Source of the DNA: a virus | DNA: 64,000 nt | Virus record (IMG/VR): IMGVR_UViG_3300021389_000005 | Span: 62,362-126,361 of that record | Reading direction: 5' to 3' (one strand) | Shown: piece after piece, positions 2-63,184 of the stretch | How positions within the stretch are numbered: the stretch's first letter is position 1 | Layout: each line of letters opens with the position of its first letter | Translations under genes and position numbers: made by a program | Notes under the pieces: generated by a model | Databases searched by the model: none | Told to the model about the DNA's origin: nothing | Seen by the model: the letters and a program-made list of their open reading frames with translations, nothing else

Positions 2-388
2 GTTAAAGTACTTATAAAAAGATACGAAGAAGAACTTATCGGATTAGGCATTAATAACATTGAAATTGTAAATGTTTTACCTATTGAAAACGAAAGTAGA
101 CCTTTACCAAAAACAGGGTACTATAAAGGAACACCTTTTGCTGGGACTTGGAATGAACGTACAGAATTAGTTAAAGAAATTAATACTGGAATAGAAGACA
201 TGGCACAAAGAAACAACTGGAAGGTTTATAAACACCCAGAAGTTTATTTTAACGCCAAAGGTGAATTAACTTTTGATGTAATGGAAAAACCTAAATCTGT
301 ACATATATCCAGAGAATATTATAGATGGAACATGGAAAAAAACGAAGCAAATAAAAATTTAATTAAACAAACACTATCTTTATTTTAA
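2..388 (+). CDS. 5'-truncated CDS, possible SGNH/GDSL-fold protein of the DNA-modification cluster
   Basis: The frame is open from base 2 (VKVLIKRYEEELIGLG...LPIENESRPLPKTGYYKGTPFAG...) through the listed 200..388 ORF. The C-terminal ...FNAKGELTFDVMEKPKSVHISREYY resembles the G-x-L...DxxH end of SGNH proteins. Confidence 0.45.
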   Translation, partial: VKVLIKRYEEELIGLGINNIEIVNVLPIENESRPLPKTGYYKGTPFAGTWNERTELVKEINTGIEDMAQRNNWKVYKHPEVYFNAKGELTFDVMEKPKSVHISREYYRWNMEKNEANKNLIKQTLSLF

Positions 389-537
389 TGAAAGCAGACG
401 AAAAATTCAACATAGAAATTACCTACAACGGATCAGGTAAAACCGAAACAATAGTAATAGAAACTAAAGACATCGAGTGGTCAATGACACAATTTCAAAG
501 AAATAGACCATCGTTTAATTGGAAAATTATAGATTAA
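388..537 (+). CDS. small hypothetical protein (49 aa, MKADEKFNIEITY...)
   Basis: Read manually. ATG overlaps the upstream TAA and the stop lies 1 nt before the next ATG. Confidence 0.6.
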   Translation: MKADEKFNIEITYNGSGKTETIVIETKDIEWSMTQFQRNRPSFNWKIID

Positions 538-538
538 A

Positions 539-1336
539 ATGCAAATATCTCCAAATGAAATAGCTAGAATAGCACAAATAGCATTTGTTCTAGAACCTAT
601 AGCTAATAAACCTGGATTAACAACTAGATATGCCGATAGGAATAGAAACTTAAAGCTAGAAAACTTCCTAGTAGCTGGTATTAATACAGGAGATTCATTT
701 AGAGAATTAGCAAAACGAGTTTACGAATCTAAAGATTTACCAATAACGTATGATATTGCACTACAAGCTCAAAAAGATTCATTTAAAAATAGACAAGGTA
801 GTAGACTTATATATGGCGGTATAATTAGTTTATTTCCATTGATCATAACACAAACACATATCCGGTCAACTGATCCATATGCAATTCTAAGCAATGTAGA
901 AGATGTATTAAAACAAACACACAGAGAAGATGCAGTACATCTTCAAGAGTTAGAAAACTATGCTTATAGTTTTGGTATTAATCATAAACAATATATGTTT
1001 GAAGTAAAGGATGAATATGAAAATGTCTGGGATTATTTAGAAAAAGATTTGATATCAATAGGAGAAATAACACAAACACATTGGAAGGACAGAGCTAAAA
1101 CAGGATCATCGAATAAAGAAATATTGAATGGATATCCTATTGTAAAGGCCATGTTAGATATTTATTACAGTACTATAAAAAATAAAGAATGGCGAGGAAT
1201 AAGTCAAACAACAGAAGAAATAGATTTCTTAATAAGAAGAGAATTTCCAAATGCACACATTCAGTGGTTAGCAGATCTACATGTATGTTTGATGTATTTG
1301 ATCTTATGTCATGAAAATAAAGAATTTTTTGTATAA
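539..1336 (+). CDS. CitG/MdcB-family (triphosphoribosyl-dephospho-CoA synthase-like) protein, archaeal-type, divergent
   Basis: The N-terminus EIARIAQIAFVLEPIANKPGLTTR..D....ENFL, central GIISLFPL, T.REDA, KEILNGYPI and C-terminal ADL match the CitG pattern (LLEV..PKPG.V...D....F; G...L..PL; E..NGF; PG..ADL). Confidence 0.65.
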   Translation: MQISPNEIARIAQIAFVLEPIANKPGLTTRYADRNRNLKLENFLVAGINTGDSFRELAKRVYESKDLPITYDIALQAQKDSFKNRQGSRLIYGGIISLFPLIITQTHIRSTDPYAILSNVEDVLKQTHREDAVHLQELENYAYSFGINHKQYMFEVKDEYENVWDYLEKDLISIGEITQTHWKDRAKTGSSNKEILNGYPIVKAMLDIYYSTIKNKEWRGISQTTEEIDFLIRREFPNAHIQWLADLHVCLMYLILCHENKEFFV

Positions 1337-1348
1337 AATAAAAAAGCA

Positions 1349-2557
1349 ATGAACATAACAACAACCAAATATTACGATGAATTCTTAAGATATTTTGAGC
1401 TAGCCAAAAAACAGCAAGATCTAAGTAATCTTGGTCATGTTCCACATGCAGAATCAAAACTAGATGACGAACTAATGCATCACATAGAATTATATGATGT
1501 AGTAGAACGTAAATATGCTGGATTTTCCCAAATAATCAATGACTGTTTTTATGGTTGGAATTCAGATCATCCATATTGGTCAAGAATGGAAGCAGGATTA
1601 TACACACCACAGCGAATGGAAGTGGCCACTAATTGGAATTCTAAGAGAGACGAATTTGGCTTAGAAGAATGGCTTTACATCTTTATACTTCACAGAGTAT
1701 GTGGATCTGCCATTAATTATGCTACTAAGCCTTCAGGATATCACAACACTATTTTATTTAATTTACACGAATGTGAAACTATAGAAGAAATGTGTGAAGT
1801 GATCAAACATCATCCTACACCCTTTTATACTTCAGTTGGTTATCAATTTCCAGCATTTCCAAAACCACCAAAACCAGAAGTTAATGAAGATTCATTCGTT
1901 GGCATGTCAGGTTTTACAAAACCAGAATATGTGTATAAAAGAGGTGGAGATTATTTCTTATGTGAATTTGCACCAAGAATGGCCAGAGACATGGCAAACT
2001 TCTTAAGAGAAGGTGGTAAAAAAGACTTAAGAGAATTGGGTGAATGGATGTTTAAGTGGAATGCAGATAATGGCTTAAGAGCTTATAGATTTCAATATGC
2101 TGCAGTTATTGCAGATGTTTGTGATTGGTACCCTGAATTTATGAATAGAGAATCAATGTTCTATTATGGTACTAACGCAGTGGAATGCATTGGCTATCTT
2201 GCAGATCCTGTAGAAAAGAAAGGTAAGAAGTCTGAAGAGTTTTTAGATGCAGTAATGACAAAGATTTATGAAGATACAGGCTCACTTCCGTATAATGCAG
2301 AAGATGTAGCATGTGACTTTATCAGATGGATAGAAAACTATTTGAGACCTGGAAAAGATTATGCACATATAAACATGGACACTTTGTGGAATTCTTCTTC
2401 GATTATAGATCATCCATATGGTAGGCAAAAAGCTATGTTAGATTTAGGTTTAGTAGAAACATTCAATGACATGACTCAATTTCCATCAGACGACAAAGTA
2501 TTACAAGGGGCAGGAGTCTCGGTTGAAGAGTATAAAAAAATGGTAGCAAAAATATGA
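1349..2557 (+). CDS. aGPT-PPlase / HhH-glycosylase-like DNA base hypermodification protein (paralog 1)
   Basis: Motifs YDVVERKYAGF, ILHRVCGS, FYTSVGYQ, FQYAAVIADV, YYGTNAVECI and YNAEDVACDFIRW parallel the F.N..R / GPGA..GL / D.E..LCEF.KY layout of the family. It is followed by a paralog and a PLP enzyme. Confidence 0.6.
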   Translation: MNITTTKYYDEFLRYFELAKKQQDLSNLGHVPHAESKLDDELMHHIELYDVVERKYAGFSQIINDCFYGWNSDHPYWSRMEAGLYTPQRMEVATNWNSKRDEFGLEEWLYIFILHRVCGSAINYATKPSGYHNTILFNLHECETIEEMCEVIKHHPTPFYTSVGYQFPAFPKPPKPEVNEDSFVGMSGFTKPEYVYKRGGDYFLCEFAPRMARDMANFLREGGKKDLRELGEWMFKWNADNGLRAYRFQYAAVIADVCDWYPEFMNRESMFYYGTNAVECIGYLADPVEKKGKKSEEFLDAVMTKIYEDTGSLPYNAEDVACDFIRWIENYLRPGKDYAHINMDTLWNSSSIIDHPYGRQKAMLDLGLVETFNDMTQFPSDDKVLQGAGVSVEEYKKMVAKI

Positions 2558-3660
2558 GTGAAGAAGTAAAAGAAATCAAAAAAGAAATTAAGCAAGCACC
2601 CGATCAAGGTGTTTTGTTTACATTTGATGATGATATCACACAAGAGTACAGTAACATCACTTATGACGGAACTAATACAAATATAAAATTTAAGAAGAAG
2701 AAACCTGCAGAAAGTTGGATGAAAGACTGGTCAGAAGAATTGAGATTAGCTAAATTCTTTGAATTCTGTCATGAGTTTGATAAGCGAGAAGATAGATTAC
2801 TATTAGAAGATTATCAAATATTTTCCCATAGATTACACTGGCATGAACATCCTTATTGTTATATGATGCAACATGAGACAGATCTAGAAAAATTACTTTA
2901 TTATACTATTGTGTTTTCATTCTCTAACGAACATTGGGGAACCATTACTAAATTAATTAATCAAGGTGAAGAAAAGACTAGAGCACATTTTGTAGAAAAT
3001 AGACATGCTAGGAATGATTTATTTCAGATCTATTATCCTAAAGGTACAATAGTTAAAGATTGGTTAATTGAAGGACCTAAAAAAGCAGCTAAAGACATGG
3101 CTCATATTCTAGAAGATTTAGAAAGACCATACACAATGATGGAGTTTGCTAAATTATTAGAAGCTTATTTTAAAGAACATCAAAACTTTAGATCACCTTT
3201 ATATCCATGCAAAAACACAGCAAGATATGTAGCTATGAGTAGACCAGATCTTGTTGATCCTGAATCTATTTTATTCGGAGGTACTGGACATTTTGATGGT
3301 ATGCAACAAATATTCGGTGGAGTTAATCTTAATGGTAAAGTAAAATATTCTATTGACTCAGATGGACAATTTATTGCAGAGAATAAACATGCTGAAGAAT
3401 GGCTAAGACAAATGGATGTACTTGTAAATCATCCAAATAATCCAATGGAAAGTCAAAAGTATTTAAACGTAGAAGATAAAACATGTTTCTTCTATAAACA
3501 CATTGCAATTAGTCATGGCATAAAATCACCAACAAAAAGAATTCCATATACATGGATATTTGATGGTAAATTTAATTTAGCTAAGAATCCAGATAAAGAA
3601 ATTAATGTTAACGCAGATACTACTCGACATTTATGGGGTAGAGATTATCCAAACGAATAA
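2554..3660 (+). CDS. aGPT-PPlase / HhH-glycosylase-like DNA base hypermodification protein (paralog 2)
   Basis: FFEFCHEFDKREDRLL..YQIFSHRLHWHEH, GGTGHFDGMQQIFGG and NVEDKTCFFYKH follow the same layout as paralog 1. ATGA overlap with the upstream gene. Confidence 0.55.
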   Translation: MSEEVKEIKKEIKQAPDQGVLFTFDDDITQEYSNITYDGTNTNIKFKKKKPAESWMKDWSEELRLAKFFEFCHEFDKREDRLLLEDYQIFSHRLHWHEHPYCYMMQHETDLEKLLYYTIVFSFSNEHWGTITKLINQGEEKTRAHFVENRHARNDLFQIYYPKGTIVKDWLIEGPKKAAKDMAHILEDLERPYTMMEFAKLLEAYFKEHQNFRSPLYPCKNTARYVAMSRPDLVDPESILFGGTGHFDGMQQIFGGVNLNGKVKYSIDSDGQFIAENKHAEEWLRQMDVLVNHPNNPMESQKYLNVEDKTCFFYKHIAISHGIKSPTKRIPYTWIFDGKFNLAKNPDKEINVNADTTRHLWGRDYPNE

Positions 3661-3663
3661 AAT

Positions 3664-4560
3664 ATGGCACACGATAAACACACAACAAGTTCAATGAATC
3701 AAGATTTAAATCTTATGATGCCTAATAGACAGGCATGGTTAGATTTAGCAGGAGATTGGCAAGATCCACTAGATGATCCAATTATTGTGAATCATGAAGG
3801 ATTTAATGTAGTAAGAGATGATATGATGGGCTTTGGATCTAAATGTAGATTTGGAGATATCTTAGTACAGAAAGCACCGACCGATACATTAGTATATGTA
3901 CAACCTAGATTTGGATTCGCAGGAATTTCTCTTGCATACTTAGCAAAAAAATATAATAAGAAATTAGTATTATTTATGCCATCTGGTAAAGTAATATCAG
4001 ATCATCAAGCCATATGTATTGAAAGAGGTGCTATTGCTAAATTTAGAAGAATCGCAGCAATGCCTAATTTAAATAGAATTGCAAAACAATGGGCAGAAGA
4101 TAACAACGCTACATTTATTCCACTAGGACTTAAACATGAATTGGTAACTGCAGCTGCGGTAAAAGTTGCATATGATGTAGCAGAAAAACACGGATATCCG
4201 GAAGAAGTATGGTCAGCAATATCAACTGGAGTTTTACAACGCTCTTTACAAATTGCATGGCCAGATGCTGAATTTAATGCAGTTGCAGTTTCTAGAAATA
4301 TTCAGAACGGTGAATTGGGTAGAGCTAAAGTTTGGTCTCATCCAAAGGCATTTGCATCAGATGTAAAACCAGAATTTGCCCCTCCGTTTCCATCAGCAAT
4401 GAACTACGATGCAAAAGCTTGGGAATTTATGGTTAAGCATGGAAATCAAGGAGCTTGGTTTTGGAATGTAGGTGGACAACCTTACCCAGAATCAGAAGAA
4501 ACTAAAGAAAAAACAAATTCAAAAAGAGAATGGGGAGAAGTTTTAGAAATAGACAAATAA
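3664..4560 (+). CDS. PLP-dependent enzyme, fold type II (like the PLP enzymes of phage thymidine-hypermodification clusters)
   Basis: VVRDDMMGFGSKCRF (PLP lysine), GFAGISLAYLA, WSAISTGVL and PPFPSAMNYDAKAW...FWNVG. Confidence 0.8.
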   Translation: MAHDKHTTSSMNQDLNLMMPNRQAWLDLAGDWQDPLDDPIIVNHEGFNVVRDDMMGFGSKCRFGDILVQKAPTDTLVYVQPRFGFAGISLAYLAKKYNKKLVLFMPSGKVISDHQAICIERGAIAKFRRIAAMPNLNRIAKQWAEDNNATFIPLGLKHELVTAAAVKVAYDVAEKHGYPEEVWSAISTGVLQRSLQIAWPDAEFNAVAVSRNIQNGELGRAKVWSHPKAFASDVKPEFAPPFPSAMNYDAKAWEFMVKHGNQGAWFWNVGGQPYPESEETKEKTNSKREWGEVLEIDK

Positions 4561-4611
4561 AAACTGAAACTATCTCAAATAAGATCATAGGAATAATATA
4601 CAAAAAAGAAC

Positions 4612-5076
4612 ATGGCGAACATAGACAACAAATGCGCAGATCTTGATATTCAAGATTATCACAAAGATACCAAAGACACTTTTGGTTTACTCTTTGACAA
4701 ACAAAAAGAATTACAAGCTAGATTAGGTTTTGACTTTAAAGGTTGGAGCATTAAAGAGATTGCAGATTTCTGGATGGTGAATAAACATGCAATGAGCGAC
4801 GAGCTTAATGAAATGTTTGATGCACTTGGAGGAATTAACGACGGAATCGGCAATGCAGGTTGGAAATATTGGAAAAAGGATAATGCTAAGACTCCTGAAA
4901 TGAAAATTGAAGATCTTAGTGAAGAAGACAAATTAGAGTTATTTTATGAGTGGATTGACGGTCTTCATTTTTATATGAACTTTGCAATTTCAATTGGCAT
5001 GACAAGTAAAGACATTGTTAACTTGTACATGGCAAAGAACGCAGAGAATCACGACAGACAAGAACGAGGATATTAA
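4612..5076 (+). CDS. dimeric dUTPase / dCTP pyrophosphatase (T4 gp56-like, all-alpha NTP-PPase)
   Basis: DELNEM..., WKYWK, EWIDGLHF and YMAKNAENHDRQERGY. Confidence 0.85.
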   Translation: MANIDNKCADLDIQDYHKDTKDTFGLLFDKQKELQARLGFDFKGWSIKEIADFWMVNKHAMSDELNEMFDALGGINDGIGNAGWKYWKKDNAKTPEMKIEDLSEEDKLELFYEWIDGLHFYMNFAISIGMTSKDIVNLYMAKNAENHDRQERGY

Positions 5077-5097: not shown

Positions 5098-6501
5098 ATG
5101 CTATTAGATATAGAGCAAAAAGAAAACGAAGTCATAATCAGTTATTACGATAAAGAAGGCAAAGTATCATTTAAAAGATATTCTGTTAACAAATTTGAAA
5201 ATTGGGTAGTTACTGAAGAAAAGGATCGTTGGAAAGATATTAAATTTAGAAACTGGGATAATCGCCCAATTAAGAGATCTATCTCAAGAAGTTTTAATAA
5301 ATTTAGTTTGCTCTATTTTATGGATTCTCTACCACAAAAGGATCAAGATGAAATCTTCGAATTTAATATGCCACGCACATACTTTGTGGATATTGAAACT
5401 GAAATTGTAGATGGTTTCCCAAAAGCAGAAGAAGCTAAAACCAGAATTCTATCATTCTCTATCATTACACCTGAACGTAAAGCAATTGTTTTAGGTTTAG
5501 AAGATATGAGTTCAGATCAAATCAAAAAGATTGAAGATGATACCAATGCTCATTTTAAAGATTATGATCAGGATTGGGAATTCAGTTATTACAAGTTTGA
5601 TGACGAGTATAACATGGTATATACATTCTTACATAAGTTTTTACCTAAGTTCCCAATGATGACTGGTTGGAATTTCATCAACTATGACTGGCAGTATATA
5701 GTTAATAGGTGTAAAAGATTACAAATAGACCTGACTGACGTGGCAATCACTGGATCTTTAGATAGAAACGATAGTAGACCATTACACATGGGAATATTAG
5801 ATTATATGCAGCTATATGATAAATATGATAGATCAGTTGCTGTAAAAGAATCTAATTCATTAGACTTTGTATCTAGCGCAGTATTAGATGTTGCAAAGAT
5901 TAAATACACTGGTGGTTTACAAGAACTATACGAAAATAACTTCCAAAAATATATTTACTATAACGTGGTCGATTCATGTTTAGTATATTATATAGATAAA
6001 CAACTTAGATCAATGGAAGTACTATTGACATTAGCAACTATAACTAGAATGCCACTTTACAAAGCAGCATCTCCAGTGGCAGTAACAGAAGCGCTTATAG
6101 CTAGAAAGCTAATCGGTCAAAATAAAAAAATTGGAATGGAATGGAATAAAGAAGATGCAAAGAAAGACGGTAAATTTGAAGGAGCATTCGTTAAACAACC
6201 AATTGTAGGTTATTACTCTGGAGTTTCAGCGTTTGATTTTGCATCTCTATATCCATCAATTATGCGTCAATTTAATATATCTCCGGATGCATTTGTTGAA
6301 CAAGTAAATGAAATGGATATTCCAGAAAGAAGAAAAGATAAAGACGTAATCGTCTGTGAAAACGGAGTTGTTTATAAGAAAGAAGATAGTATTCTTAAAA
6401 AAATATTGGCAGATTTATATGGCCAACGTAAAGAATATAAAAAGACTTCTTATGAATATTATGAAAAAGCCCACGAACTAGAAAAAAAATTAAAGTCATA
6501 A
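5098..6501 (+). CDS. gp43A: family B DNA polymerase, N-terminal subunit (3'-5' exonuclease, motif A, first fingers helix; gp43A-like)
   Basis: ExoI FVDIET, ExoII GWNFINYDWQYI, ExoIII YNVVDS and motif A FDFASLYPSIM. It ends after LKKILADLYGQRKEYKK and lacks motifs B and C. Confidence 0.9.
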   Translation: MLLDIEQKENEVIISYYDKEGKVSFKRYSVNKFENWVVTEEKDRWKDIKFRNWDNRPIKRSISRSFNKFSLLYFMDSLPQKDQDEIFEFNMPRTYFVDIETEIVDGFPKAEEAKTRILSFSIITPERKAIVLGLEDMSSDQIKKIEDDTNAHFKDYDQDWEFSYYKFDDEYNMVYTFLHKFLPKFPMMTGWNFINYDWQYIVNRCKRLQIDLTDVAITGSLDRNDSRPLHMGILDYMQLYDKYDRSVAVKESNSLDFVSSAVLDVAKIKYTGGLQELYENNFQKYIYYNVVDSCLVYYIDKQLRSMEVLLTLATITRMPLYKAASPVAVTEALIARKLIGQNKKIGMEWNKEDAKKDGKFEGAFVKQPIVGYYSGVSAFDFASLYPSIMRQFNISPDAFVEQVNEMDIPERRKDKDVIVCENGVVYKKEDSILKKILADLYGQRKEYKKTSYEYYEKAHELEKKLKS

Positions 6502-61326: not shown

Positions 61327-61411
61327 GCCGTTGTGATGGAATTGGTAGACATGACAGACTTAAAATCTGTTGGGCTGAAAGCCCGTGGCGGTTCGAGCCC
61401 GCCCAGCGGTA
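61327..61411 (+). tRNA. tRNA-Leu(TAA)
   Basis: Cloverleaf; ACAGA-CT TAA AA-TCTGT; long variable arm; GTTCGAG T-loop; no encoded CCA. Confidence 0.92.
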
Positions 61412-61420
61412 CTTAGATAT

Positions 61421-61494
61421 GGACCAGTAGCACAACTGGATAGTGCAGCACCCTTCTAAGGTGCCGGTTATAGGTTCGAATCCTATCTGGTTCA
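61421..61494 (+). tRNA. tRNA-Arg(TCT)
   Basis: GCACC-CT TCT AA-GGTGC; GTTCGAAT; no encoded CCA. Confidence 0.92.
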
Positions 61495-61499
61495 CAAAT

Positions 61500-61578
61500 G
61501 GTCTGGTAGTTCAGTTTTGGTTAGAATACTTGCCTGTCACGCAAGGGGTCGCGAGTTCGAGTCTCGTCCAGACCGCCA
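61500..61578 (+). tRNA. tRNA-Asp(GTC)
   Basis: CTTGC-CT GTC AC-GCAAG; ends G-CCA. Confidence 0.93.
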
Positions 61579-61585
61579 ATAACTT

Positions 61586-61657
61586 GCTCCGTTCGTCTAA
61601 CGGTTAGGACATCAGGTTTTCATCCTGAAAATAGGAGTTCGATTCTCCTACGGAGTA
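61586..61657 (+). tRNA. tRNA-Glu(TTC)
   Basis: TCAGG-TT TTC AT-CCTGA; no encoded CCA. Confidence 0.9.
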
Positions 61658-61666
61658 CTAATTAAA

Positions 61667-61739
61667 TGTGCCTTGGTGTAATTGGCAACACGTCGGTTTT
61701 TGGTACCGAAGAGTCGGGGTTCGAGCCCCTGAGGCACAA
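61667..61739 (+). tRNA. tRNA-Gln(TTG)
   Basis: TCGGT-TT TTG GT-ACCGA; T1-A72 pair; no encoded CCA. Confidence 0.9.
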
Positions 61740-61825
61740 CTTTTTAAACGTTATTTGACTTACCGAAAAAAATAGATCATAGATCGAGTCTTGCACCTCT
61801 ACATAGATTAAGGTGTTTTCAACAT

Positions 61826-61899
61826 GGGGATGTAGCTCAGTTGGTTAGAGCAGGACTCTTATATAGTCAAGGTCGTGGGTTCGATTCCCGCCATCCCTA
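61826..61899 (+). tRNA. tRNA-Ile(TAT)
   Basis: Acceptor GGGGATG/CATCCCT, D arm GCTC/GAGC, anticodon arm GACT-CT TAT AT-AGTC, T arm GTGGG-TTCGATT-CCCGC. Confidence 0.85.
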
Positions 61900-61924
61900 C
61901 CCAAAGACAACTATGATTTATTAA

Positions 61925-61997
61925 GATCTCTTAGCTCAGTTGGTAGAGCATCACACTTTTAATGTGAGGGTCCAGGGTTCGAGCCCCTGAGGGATCA
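61925..61997 (+). tRNA. tRNA-Lys(TTT)
   Basis: TCACA-CT TTT AA-TGTGA; no encoded CCA. Confidence 0.92.
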
Positions 61998-62008
61998 CAG
62001 GTTACGAA

Positions 62009-62038: not shown

Positions 62039-63184
62039 ATGCAACTACAAAAATTCAGTAATTTTATGCTTTTGAAAGAAGCTGAAACAAAACTCCAAGT
62101 TAATGTACCCTCGGATATATTAGACTTGTACACACTGTTCAAAAAGAATGGCAAGGAATTGTACATTGTTGGCGGTGCAGTAAGAGATGCGTTATTGGGT
62201 AAAAAGCCAAAAGATTTTGATTTGGCTACCGATGCATTTCCAGCAGAAGTTATTGATATCGTTACTAAAGGAGGTTATTCAACAACAGGTGAAGTTGGAC
62301 ACCAATTTGGTGTAGTTATTGTAAATGTACCTTCAGATCCAGCTGGTGTTGAAATTGCCACTTTCAGAGAAGACATTGGAAAAGGTAGAAGACCAGATGC
62401 AGTTGAGTATTCCACAATAGATAAAGATGTATTAAGACGTGATTTAACAATTAATGCTTTATTCTATGATATGGGCAGAAATGAAGTTGTCGATTTAGTT
62501 GGAGGTCTAGATGATATAAAGAATTCAAAGATTAGAACTGTCGGTGTTGCTGCTGATAGATTTGCTGAGGATCCACTAAGAAAACTAAGAGCATTAAGAT
62601 TTGCTGGTAGAACTGGTTCAAATCTGGAAGAAGAGACAGCAAACGCAATTTTAACAGATAACAGTTTAGAAGGTATCAGCGCAGAGAGAATTAGAGATGA
62701 GTTTAAAAAATCTATTGTTTCTGCTAAGTCCGCTAAGAAGTACTTAGAGATGGTCTCTGAATTTAATCTATGGTCTATTATGTTTCCTACATTAGAGATC
62801 AATAAAAAATTCATAGATACTAATACTTGGCTTGTTCAATTAGGTACTCTGTTCATGAATAATGAACATAAGAAAGAAATGAATAAGTTAACATTTACTA
62901 ATGACGAAATAGACGCTTGTATTTTCTTAAACAAGATAATGACGTTTGATGTTAATGATGTGTTTGATTTACATAAACAATTTAAGAATGCCAAAATAGA
63001 TAAAAAAGATGTTTTAGAATTTGCAAAGATTCATAAGTTAGATGTAAAAACTCTAAAGGCATTCTTTAAATATAAACCATCAACCAATGGCAAAGATGTG
63101 ATGAAGCAGTTTGGTGTAAAAGGCCCAGAGGTTGCGCTTAAAATTAAACAAATTGAATCTGATAAATTTCAGAAATTGATTTAA
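62039..63184 (+). CDS. cca: class II tRNA nucleotidyltransferase (CCA-adding enzyme)
   Basis: VGGAVRDALLG..PKDFDLAT, EIATFR, RRDLTINAL, EDPLRKLRALRF and SAERIRDEF. Confidence 0.9.
   Translation: MQLQKFSNFMLLKEAETKLQVNVPSDILDLYTLFKKNGKELYIVGGAVRDALLGKKPKDFDLATDAFPAEVIDIVTKGGYSTTGEVGHQFGVVIVNVPSDPAGVEIATFREDIGKGRRPDAVEYSTIDKDVLRRDLTINALFYDMGRNEVVDLVGGLDDIKNSKIRTVGVAADRFAEDPLRKLRALRFAGRTGSNLEEETANAILTDNSLEGISAERIRDEFKKSIVSAKSAKKYLEMVSEFNLWSIMFPTLEINKKFIDTNTWLVQLGTLFMNNEHKKEMNKLTFTNDEIDACIFLNKIMTFDVNDVFDLHKQFKNAKIDKKDVLEFAKIHKLDVKTLKAFFKYKPSTNGKDVMKQFGVKGPEVALKIKQIESDKFQKLI

Follow-up and report, generated by a model that had tools for sequence, protein, structure and literature searches.

A rare CitG-like gene kept under purifying selection in a marine phage and inserted singly into a putative DNA-modification operon

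Close to the start of a 64,000-nucleotide (nt) stretch of viral DNA (IMG/VR record IMGVR_UViG_3300021389_000005, positions 62,362 to 126,361; hereafter the window) lies an open reading frame (ORF) related to CitG and MdcB (EC 2.4.2.52, PF01874), enzymes that use ATP as a triphosphoribosyl donor and whose established chemistry is transfer, without hydrolysis. The window makes up the latter half of a viral record of 126,361 bases with a CheckV completeness of ~43%, and the CitG-like ORF is packed into a tight operon, 1 nt after the gene orf49 and 12 nt before a gene for a protein of 402 amino acids (aa). A sequence-only reading of the window had proposed that, with modification genes next door, the enzyme may ribosylate a nucleotide, a modified base or a signaling molecule. 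The analysis presented here largely refutes an involvement in DNA modification, and leaves a rare, mobile and selected viral relative of CitG with suggestive partners in its subfamily.

The ORF is real, and both family and fold place its product in the CitG/MdcB superfamily. The Pfam CitG profile matches it at 42.5 bits (cut-off 27, E 8e-11; 42.1 bits in a six-frame search), over protein residues 9-213 and positions 1-195 of the 284 in the profile. No NCBIfam family of any kind, the CitG/MdcB models included, matches the protein at E <= 0.1, and PHROGs gives nothing for it, returning just two weak, unrelated matches across the CitG-like clades and the partner proteins described below. An AlphaFold model computed with 15 homologues is all-helical (predicted local distance difference test, pLDDT, 71; predicted template modeling score, pTM, 0.76), and the top three Foldseek matches in the PDB are the three chains of a single entry, 3h9p (E 0.04, probability 1.00, TM-score 0.42-0.52), an Archaeoglobus fulgidus protein titled 'putative triphosphoribosyl-dephospho-CoA synthase'. 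VIA-align superposed chain A of 3h9p with Z 11.8 and a root-mean-square deviation of 3.5 Å, aligning 181 residues over model positions 16-261, against Z 6.3 for the second entry. Since no other member of this Pfam family has a solved structure, and since the 3h9p match is far ahead of all others and extends into the C-terminal third not reached by the Pfam profile, the CitG fold can be assigned over the whole length of the protein. The structural similarity to CitG that the sequence-only reading had asked for is thereby borne out. This best and only clear structural match is a distant one in sequence (identity 14-17%, sequence-profile E 0.23), carries Asn-Val-His where the phage protein has Arg-Leu-Ile, and is itself putative in function by its title.

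The motifs separate what the phage protein shares with CitG/MdcB from what it does not. Along with the above-threshold Pfam match and the all-helical fold, the shared features comprise E-x4-K-x-G-L-x-x-R near the N-terminus (phage LEPIANKPGLTTR versus NLSPKPGLVDR in Escherichia coli), G-x-I-x-S-L, E-x3-G-Y-P and the C-terminal A-D-L, and every CitG-type motif that the sequence-only reading had quoted is found in the translation. The E. coli K-12 CitG sequence used here was taken from the annotated cit operon; profile matches to this single sequence are weak (E 0.27 and 0.1) and served only for motif alignment. In these alignments, hhalign pairs the phage SRLIYG with VNTHKG of E. coli CitG, HMMER pairs the same segment with ENVHFG of 3h9p, and the subfamily consensus 'pgilAD' falls opposite SPGGSAD of E. 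coli. The N-[TV]-H-x-G motif (NTHKG in E. coli, NVHFG in 3h9p) thus reads RLIYG in the phage, and PGGSAD reads IQWLAD, with Ala-Asp retained and Pro-Gly gone. The same reading had described these motifs as altered, to RLIY and HIQWLAD, and hhalign, HMMER and an alignment of 84 sequences agree with it.

That alignment, comprising the window protein and the 83 of 158 matched proteins that span the profile end to end, locates the change at two positions within an otherwise conserved core. Residues kept in the window protein include E19 (82 of 84 sequences), K24 (82), T28 (77), R30 (79), N49 (79), G93 (83), D131 (80), A245 (81) and D246 (80). By contrast, position 91 is Asn in 61 of the 84 sequences and Ile in the window, whose clade has Ile, Val or Ala there, and position 242 is Gly in 60 and Gln in the window. 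Both Asn91 and Gly242 are missing from 15 sequences, 13 of which form the window's own clade. In a quick FastTree phylogeny with a midpoint root, used solely to group that clade, Gly242 is already replaced in a wider phage-associated clade (P0019, P0021, P0022 and P0027), and loss of Asn91 is confined to the window's own clade. In a clade under purifying selection, as shown next, the replacement of both residues marks a derived yet maintained state.

The gene is under purifying selection. Ratios of non-synonymous to synonymous substitution rates (dN/dS) within the clade lie at 0.09-0.26 in 21 of 21 pairs, and the ORF is intact in the window, in the contigs L001 and L002, near-copies of this phage, and in an independent sequencing run (X3). 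Between the window and L001, the inserted gene has dN/dS 0.24 (dN 0.042, dS 0.175), and its dS resembles that of the flanking genes (0.16-0.31), so the insertion described next is older than the split of these two phages. A separate exchange of the CitG-like allele, considered because the gene is 92% identical to that of L001 and the flanks are 97-100% identical, was rejected on the same grounds of similar dS.

Comparison with related phages revealed that the CitG-like gene is a discrete insert (Table 1). In relatives that lack it, the 402-aa gene starts, as ATGCAAATAACAACG, 1-2 nt beyond the orf49 stop codon. The window has the same ATGCAAATA at this place, but here it opens the CitG-like ORF, and a rebuilt start of the 402-aa gene, ATGAACATAACAACA, follows the stop codon and a spacer. 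The donor-like gene of L006, one of a set of relatives referred to below as group A, carries ATGCAAATATC internally, four codons into its ORF; the N-terminus of the window protein is 4 residues shorter than in group A, and the similarity of group A genes to the window stops just past the stop codon. Both forms of the locus were found in one marine DNA run, X5, in which position 544 is joined directly to 1355 in one contig, which omits exactly 810 nt (depth 81), and a second contig passes from orf49 into the CitG-like gene (depth 13.8); these depths serve only to note that both forms are present, and runs X1, X2 and X4, as possible sources of this DNA, were left out of the comparison. The independent run X3 contains the whole stretch without a difference. 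A single ORF of ~810 nt has thus recombined into the operon at a 9-nt microhomology, taking over the start codon of the recipient and bringing no promoter of its own. The insert (539-1348) and its borders lack terminator-like sites on the + strand, and promoter-like sites show no enrichment (26, against a shuffle mean of 35.7), making the promoter and terminator scans uninformative. An RNA library (X15) yielded short contigs over 484-630, which has one difference and crosses the junction between orf49 and the CitG-like gene, and over 880-1029 (15 of 30 bins); since DNA can occur in such libraries, these contigs give a weak hint of transcription.

Table 1. Positions of the CitG-like gene, its motifs, its insertion junctions and the adjoining genes in the window
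Feature	Position	Strand	Basis or remark
CitG-like ORF, ATG start, 265 aa (stop codon included in end)	539..1336	+	ORF list, PF01874, fold match, dN/dS
810-nt single-gene insert relative to related phages; ends ambiguous by a few bases (microhomology)	545..1354	+	X5 contig; alignment with L024, L027, L030 and L033 (gene absent)
5' junction, ATGCAAATA	539..547	+	Common to the 402-aa start in insert-free relatives and an internal site of donor-like CitG-like genes (L006)
12-nt A-rich spacer from CitG-like stop to rebuilt 402-aa start (ATGAACATA); 3' junction region	1337..1348	+	DNA alignments
LEPIANKPGL, residues 18-27	590..619	+	Opposite E. coli CitG NLSPKPGLVDR; T28 and R30 just after
RLIY (89-92) and GGIISLFPL (93-101), residues 89-101	803..841	+	Opposite E. 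coli NTHKGSIFSLG and 3h9p NVHFGAFLLLVPL
KEILNGYPI, residues 193-201	1115..1141	+	E194, G198 and P200 conserved across the subfamily
HIQWLADL, residues 240-247 (HIQWLAD 240-246, ADL 245-247)	1256..1279	+	Opposite E. coli SPGGSADL
orf49, last gene before the insert; abuts the 402-aa gene in relatives	388..537	+	
402-aa gene, whose start-codon region received the insert	1349..2557	+	No Pfam match; 939 homologous clusters
Rest of cassette: 368-aa gene, 298-aa pyridoxal phosphate (PLP)-fold enzyme, 154-aa dUTPase_2-like nucleoside triphosphate (NTP) pyrophosphohydrolase; family-B DNA polymerase next	2554..5076	+	

The insertion bears directly on whether the enzyme could perform a step of the adjacent DNA hypermodification, in which a modified thymine or nucleotide precursor would be ribosylated with ATP as the donor. 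The case for such a role starts from the tight spacing of the operon and from the genes that follow. The 298-aa enzyme of PLP fold matches phrog_7093 (E 5e-39) and is followed by the dUTPase_2-like pyrophosphohydrolase, and a protein atlas places the 402-aa and 368-aa proteins nearest to viral clusters whose members in part carry PF18723 HMUDK_hel (11-36%) and PF18724 ADDT (12-57%), with scores of 0.93-0.98; specifically, the 402-aa protein is near PF18723 clusters and the 368-aa protein near PF18723/PF18724 clusters. These two atlas-placed proteins, the PLP-fold enzyme and the NTP pyrophosphohydrolase are reminiscent of thymidine hypermodification clusters, which encode 5-HMUDK, AADT/aGPT-Pplase and a PLP decarboxylase, and in which paralogous AADT pairs together with a PLP enzyme are typical (PMC8989533). 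The modification label remains tentative since hidden Markov models (HMMs) of the same Pfam families miss the neighbors that the atlas places near them: PF18723 and PF18724 find nothing in the 126 kb record at E <= 10. A dUMP hydroxymethylase of the thymidylate synthase family (PF00303) was likewise looked for, and no match was obtained at E <= 1 in this record, which is ~43% complete. Neither the 402-aa nor the 368-aa protein has a Pfam, PHROG or NCBIfam match, the two are not detectable paralogues of one another (BLASTP E 0.21), and the 402-aa protein has no match in DNA and tblastn searches of the phage collection. A putative DNA-hypermodification cassette is nevertheless a reasonable lead for these genes; the earlier description of them as modification genes holds only tentatively.

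Co-occurrence argues against assigning the CitG-like gene to that cassette. Eighty viral loci with the 402-aa gene were compared; in 78 of them the upstream sequence extends to 899 nt or more, and just 2 of these 78 carry the CitG-like gene; both are near-copies of the window phage (L001 and L002). The usual order is DUF6378, an SGNH-like gene, orf49, the 402-aa gene, (the 368-aa gene), the PLP-fold gene, the dUTPase-like gene and the polymerase, and in L024 and L027, the nearest relatives, the 402-aa gene is 98-99% identical to that of the window and the CitG-like gene is absent. The numbers of homologous clusters differ likewise, with 939 for the 402-aa protein and 478 for the 368-aa protein versus 17 for the CitG-like protein. 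Relatives of the gene occur in four other phage lineages, and homologues of the 402-aa, 368-aa and PLP-fold proteins are absent from the DNA fetched around all four; the one record searched in full, the 118.6 kb record of L023, contains no 402-aa homologue. Such a distribution, over unrelated loci and apart from modification genes, is the one that the sequence-only reading had named as refuting its proposal. The main text of PMC8989533 has 0 occurrences of citg, triphosphoribosyl or ribosyl, and thus describes no CitG or ribosyl step within hypermodification clusters. The CitG-like gene is therefore not a regular part of the cassette, and the co-occurrence with modification genes anticipated from the sequence alone fails in these loci, as does the argument from 'modification genes next door', given the discrete 810-nt insertion; what survives of the proposed ribosylation is the plausibility of another acceptor. 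A role in hypermodification is accordingly quite improbable in our estimation, and is conceivable only as a lineage-specific add-on. Present in ~3% of such operons as a recent insertion, the gene is not to be annotated as part of that pathway, and the locus illustrates a limit of guilt by association, insofar as a gene in a tightly packed operon turns out to be a recent single-gene insertion.

The gene is rare in viruses and elsewhere. The CitG-like protein has 17 homologues in 5.8 billion clusters, and a deep profile search of 1.84 billion cluster representatives returned 144, of which 25 match at E <= 1e-30, and did not extend to canonical CitG/MdcB enzymes. No CitG-family protein was found in 50,697 phage records (searched as DNA and by tblastn), in PHROGs or in the BFVD fold library (best E 0.92), and a plasmid collection gave no tblastn match at E <= 10. 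No paper on a phage CitG was found among the titles and abstract openings surveyed, and no member of the subfamily carries a functional name in the sources searched. Cellular members are sparse: in the phyla to which the two cellular matches belong, sampling turned them up in 4 of 301 and 4 of 201 genomes, all of 0.7-2.2 Mb. The subfamily is thus rare and uncharacterized, with members in marine phages and in small-genome archaea and bacteria.

Scans of viral, metagenome and genome collections placed phage relatives, 29-83% identical to the window protein, in four further contexts with unrelated neighbors. The five phage contexts share no gene beside the CitG-like gene itself, the nucleotidyltransferase (NTase)-like partner families excepted, and of 21 neighbor proteins from the other loci, 20 are unmatched in the 126 kb record, the exception being one terminase-like protein. 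In group A (L006, L008, L009, L011 and L013; 56-83% identical), all five loci with upstream DNA have the order ~180-aa protein, 78-aa protein, CitG-like gene (for example L008:717-2327), in the vicinity of a large DUF6267 protein and, a few kb away, a terminase and a T4-type portal. In L015 and L016 (39%), an N-terminal HAD phosphatase domain (HAD_PNKP, PF25109, E 7e-9; L016:113-1318) precedes the CitG-like domain in a single fused protein, with genes downstream for a methyltransferase, a DUF6071 protein, a sulfotransferase, a GT8-like protein and a 178-aa protein. In L018, L019 and L020 (29%), the gene is accompanied by a 2-oxoglutarate-Fe(II) oxygenase, a glycosyltransferase-like protein, an NAD-dependent epimerase/dehydratase and a 223-aa protein that overlaps the CitG-like start and is homologous to the 178-aa protein of L015. 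In L023 (42%), a 160-aa protein (L023:7517-7999) with a Walker-A-like N-terminus and a weak thymidylate-kinase PHROG match likewise overlaps the CitG-like start. As a separate observation, a 311-aa ORF in L014 (2327-3262, P0013) combines an MGS-like domain (PF02142, E 1e-23) with the last 154 residues of a CitG-like protein, itself 87% identical to that of the window; this ORF may represent a genuine fusion, a truncation or a chimeric assembly.

Two of these partner families may be related to one another. The ~180-aa proteins of group A and the 178-223-aa proteins share a pattern of G-[GS], a short spacer and D-x-D (G[GS]-x(9-13)-DxD-like), which we take to be a signature of Pol-beta-type nucleotidyltransferases, a superfamily presumably including MdcG. 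The two families are paired by hhalign on this segment (E 0.04), and for the HMM of each, the other is the best or near-best foreign match (E 0.009-0.4). Searches of Pfam, PHROGs and PDB profiles returned nothing for either family and reached no solved nucleotidyltransferase; the model of the group A partner (pLDDT 41.5) is too low in confidence for a fold search, and this partner has no similarity to CitX. Between the two enzymes of group A sits the 78-aa protein, which is rich in Asn, Ser and Gly, begins with an invariant Pro-x-Ser-Gly and has no similarity to E. coli CitD. By analogy, the group A order is reminiscent of transferase, carrier and CitG.

Cellular members of the subfamily point to a similar set of associates. 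N-terminal extensions of at least 90 aa are present in 18 of the 144 representatives; ten long members were scanned and revealed an HD domain in three, a HAD domain in one, a cyclic-nucleotide-binding domain in one and nothing recognizable in five. By BLAST, 12 of the 18 extensions group with the HD fusions, of which L117:5195-6637 is a further example. The N-terminal phosphohydrolase fusions (L016, P0021, P0030, P0033, P0043 and L117) involve HAD_PNKP in a phage and HD in cellular members. A NUDIX gene adjoins the CitG-like gene in L004, a metagenome-assembled genome (MAG) of Saccharibacteria, and in small genomes of an archaeal phylum a gene for a B12-binding radical S-adenosylmethionine protein of ~515 aa does so (L116:4262-5818 and L003:11070-12611). 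In P0084 (677 aa, from a Candidatus Woesearchaeota MAG), a domain binding cyclic nucleoside monophosphates (cNMP) precedes the CitG-like domain and is matched best, within PADLOC, by the sensor region of Pycsar effector models (E 1e-9), an architecture that resembles a signal-activated effector.

Such an architecture raises the possibility that the protein is an ATP nucleosidase or effector, which would convert ATP to adenine and ribose 5-triphosphate with water as the acceptor. Proposed roles would be host shut-off, nucleotide salvage or interference with signaling, with the fused HD and HAD domains clearing the sugar triphosphate. The solitary state of the gene in the window phage, which has neither transferase nor carrier, would suit such an enzyme, as would the phosphohydrolase fusions, the cNMP-binding archaeal member with its Pycsar-like sensor and the confinement of cellular members to genomes of 0.7-2.2 Mb. 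The PADLOC matches, on the other hand, are to a generic cNMP-binding domain, and no defense model matches the CitG-like domain itself; moreover, the chemistry of the family is transfer and not hydrolysis, and NTase-like partners in three phage lineages suit a transfer pathway better. We therefore regard both the nucleosidase activity and these roles as improbable.

Still less probable, in our view, is a conventional auxiliary metabolic gene that would supply the dephospho-CoA-derived prosthetic-group precursor for citrate lyase or malonate decarboxylase of the host. Membership of PF01874 is compatible with this function, and a host could supply CitX or MdcG and the carrier protein. Against it stand the lack of any NCBIfam match, the failure of the clade HMM to find E. 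coli CitG (the subfamily HMM reaches it at E 0.05 only), the altered NTHKG and PGGSAD motifs, and the occurrence of other subfamily members fused to HD or HAD domains or within glycan-type gene clusters. Unlike canonical CitG/MdcB genes, the phage gene is a lone insert, and its Pfam match is limited to the first 195 of 284 profile positions. Neither CitX (PF03802), acyl carrier protein (PF06857) nor MdcG (PF10620) was found at E <= 1 in the 126,361-base record, in agreement with the sequence-only reading; with ~43% of the genome represented, the absence of these partners, and of lyase and decarboxylase genes, from the phage is unproven. A divergent CitG member with altered motifs, in a record without citrate-lyase or malonate-decarboxylase partners, makes a non-canonical acceptor plausible. 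Separately, ~6 kb upstream of the CitG-like gene of L001, a large protein (L001:2399-4243) matches the cytidylyltransferase-like family PF01467 (E 4e-9), with a marginal C-terminal match to Citrate_ly_lig, and a large protein of L008 (2806-5253) has a weak cytidylyltransferase-like match together with DUF6267; there is no detectable homology between the two.

Our best reading is that the CitG-like protein is a divergent, working enzyme of the CitG/MdcB superfamily, and that, as a mobile accessory enzyme, it performs CitG-type triphosphoribosyl chemistry on an acceptor other than CoA; taken as a whole, this statement seems to us slightly better than an even proposition. The enzyme would cleave the adenine-ribose bond of ATP and transfer the 5-triphosphoribosyl group to a hydroxyl of an acceptor. 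This acceptor is unlikely to be dephospho-CoA on its way to an acyl carrier protein; it is probably a small molecule of the host or phage as opposed to the modified DNA base of the phage. Replacement of Asn91 and Gly242 would be the sign of an altered substrate pocket. Elsewhere in the subfamily, a fused or adjacent phosphohydrolase (HD, HAD or NUDIX) would probably trim the triphosphate product or, alternatively, the small NTase-like partner would pass it on. The window phage would have taken the CitG-like gene alone and would read it with the operon. This proposal is favored because the recurrent associates, namely HD, HAD, NUDIX, kinase-like and NTase-like proteins, all handle phosphate esters or nucleotides, because the core residues are retained and because the gene is under selection. 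Associates of this kind would be expected around an enzyme with an ATP-derived 5-triphosphoribosyl product that is trimmed or transferred onward.

Several observations weigh against this reading. The putative active-site and motif loops (17-37, 87-90 and 172-194) are the least confident parts of the model, and the VIA-align Z of 11.8 falls below ~13, a level under which the tool warns that helical arrangement alone can produce matches. ATP use, adenine release and ribosyl transfer are predicted from family membership. E. coli CitG, 3h9p and the remainder of the subfamily conserve the two positions that differ here, and their replacement could signal lost activity instead of new specificity. 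All of the phage contexts are contig fragments, and an insertion within a putative DNA-modification operon could still be functionally selected there. Finally, in the comparison with L001 the insert has a dN of 0.042, 5-45 times the values of 0.001-0.008 for its flanking genes, and neither the two NTase-like partners nor the 78-aa protein could be detected by HMM in the 126 kb record (best E 0.22).

The last two points bear on a further explanation. With the gene alone in the window phage, either the acceptor is already present in the infected cell or the gene is an orphan, and the absence of the partners from the record means that the latter may be the case. As an orphan, the protein would work only with the NTase-like partner and the 78-aa protein at home and, captured alone, would be a passenger with little or no function, drifting. 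The conservation of the three-gene module in all five group A loci with upstream DNA is consistent with such dependence, as are the elevated dN and the N-terminus shortened relative to group A. Drift is difficult to reconcile, however, with an ORF that is intact in the window, L001, L002 and run X3 and keeps all core signature residues, and with dN/dS 0.24 at dS 0.175 relative to L001, which indicates that the gene has been kept since before the split; in addition, partners could lie elsewhere in a record that is ~43% complete. We consider an orphan passenger unlikely, and retain the working, non-canonical enzyme as the preferred reading.

Extending that reading to the whole subfamily yields a more speculative picture, which we consider doubtful as a joint proposition. 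The subfamily would be the core of an undescribed ATP-driven (phospho)ribosylation system traded by phages as a cassette, in which a 5-triphosphoribosyl group would be placed on a non-CoA acceptor and the adduct would be trimmed by HD, HAD or NUDIX proteins, or moved by the NTase-like partner to the 78-aa Ser-Gly protein in a manner similar to attachment by MdcG or CitX. The window enzyme, acting alone with a remodeled pocket (Ile91 and Gln242), would ribosylate a host metabolite or an immune signaling nucleotide. To our knowledge, CitG chemistry, in which ATP donates the ribose and a ribose-O-glycosidic bond is formed, has been described only for the prosthetic groups that serve citrate lyase and malonate decarboxylase. 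A phage CitG that is rare, under selection and horizontally mobile, with relatives wired to phosphohydrolases and NTase-like proteins, may point to unexplored ribosylation.

Some further observations concern the surroundings of the gene. In two unrelated contexts the CitG-like gene is closely preceded by a gene for an SGNH/GDSL-type esterase, possibly by coincidence: window positions 2-388 (full gene L001:8789-9850) have a weak GDSL match, and L009:6486-7451 belongs to the GSCFA family (E 3e-44). The cassette itself (window 1349-5076, loci L024-L103) is very widespread in marine viral contigs, and variable; the 368-aa gene is unmatched in 22 of the 80 loci, some of which end early, and orf49 is just 40-73% identical among close relatives. 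The ORF of the family-B DNA polymerase (window 5098-6501) ends at 467 aa and matches positions 23-137 of 453 in the DNA_pol_B profile, and thus looks split or interrupted. At the far end of the window (61327-61998) lies an array of seven tRNA genes: Leu-taa, Arg-tct, Asp-gtc, Glu-ttc, Gln-ttg, Ile-tat and Lys-ttt.

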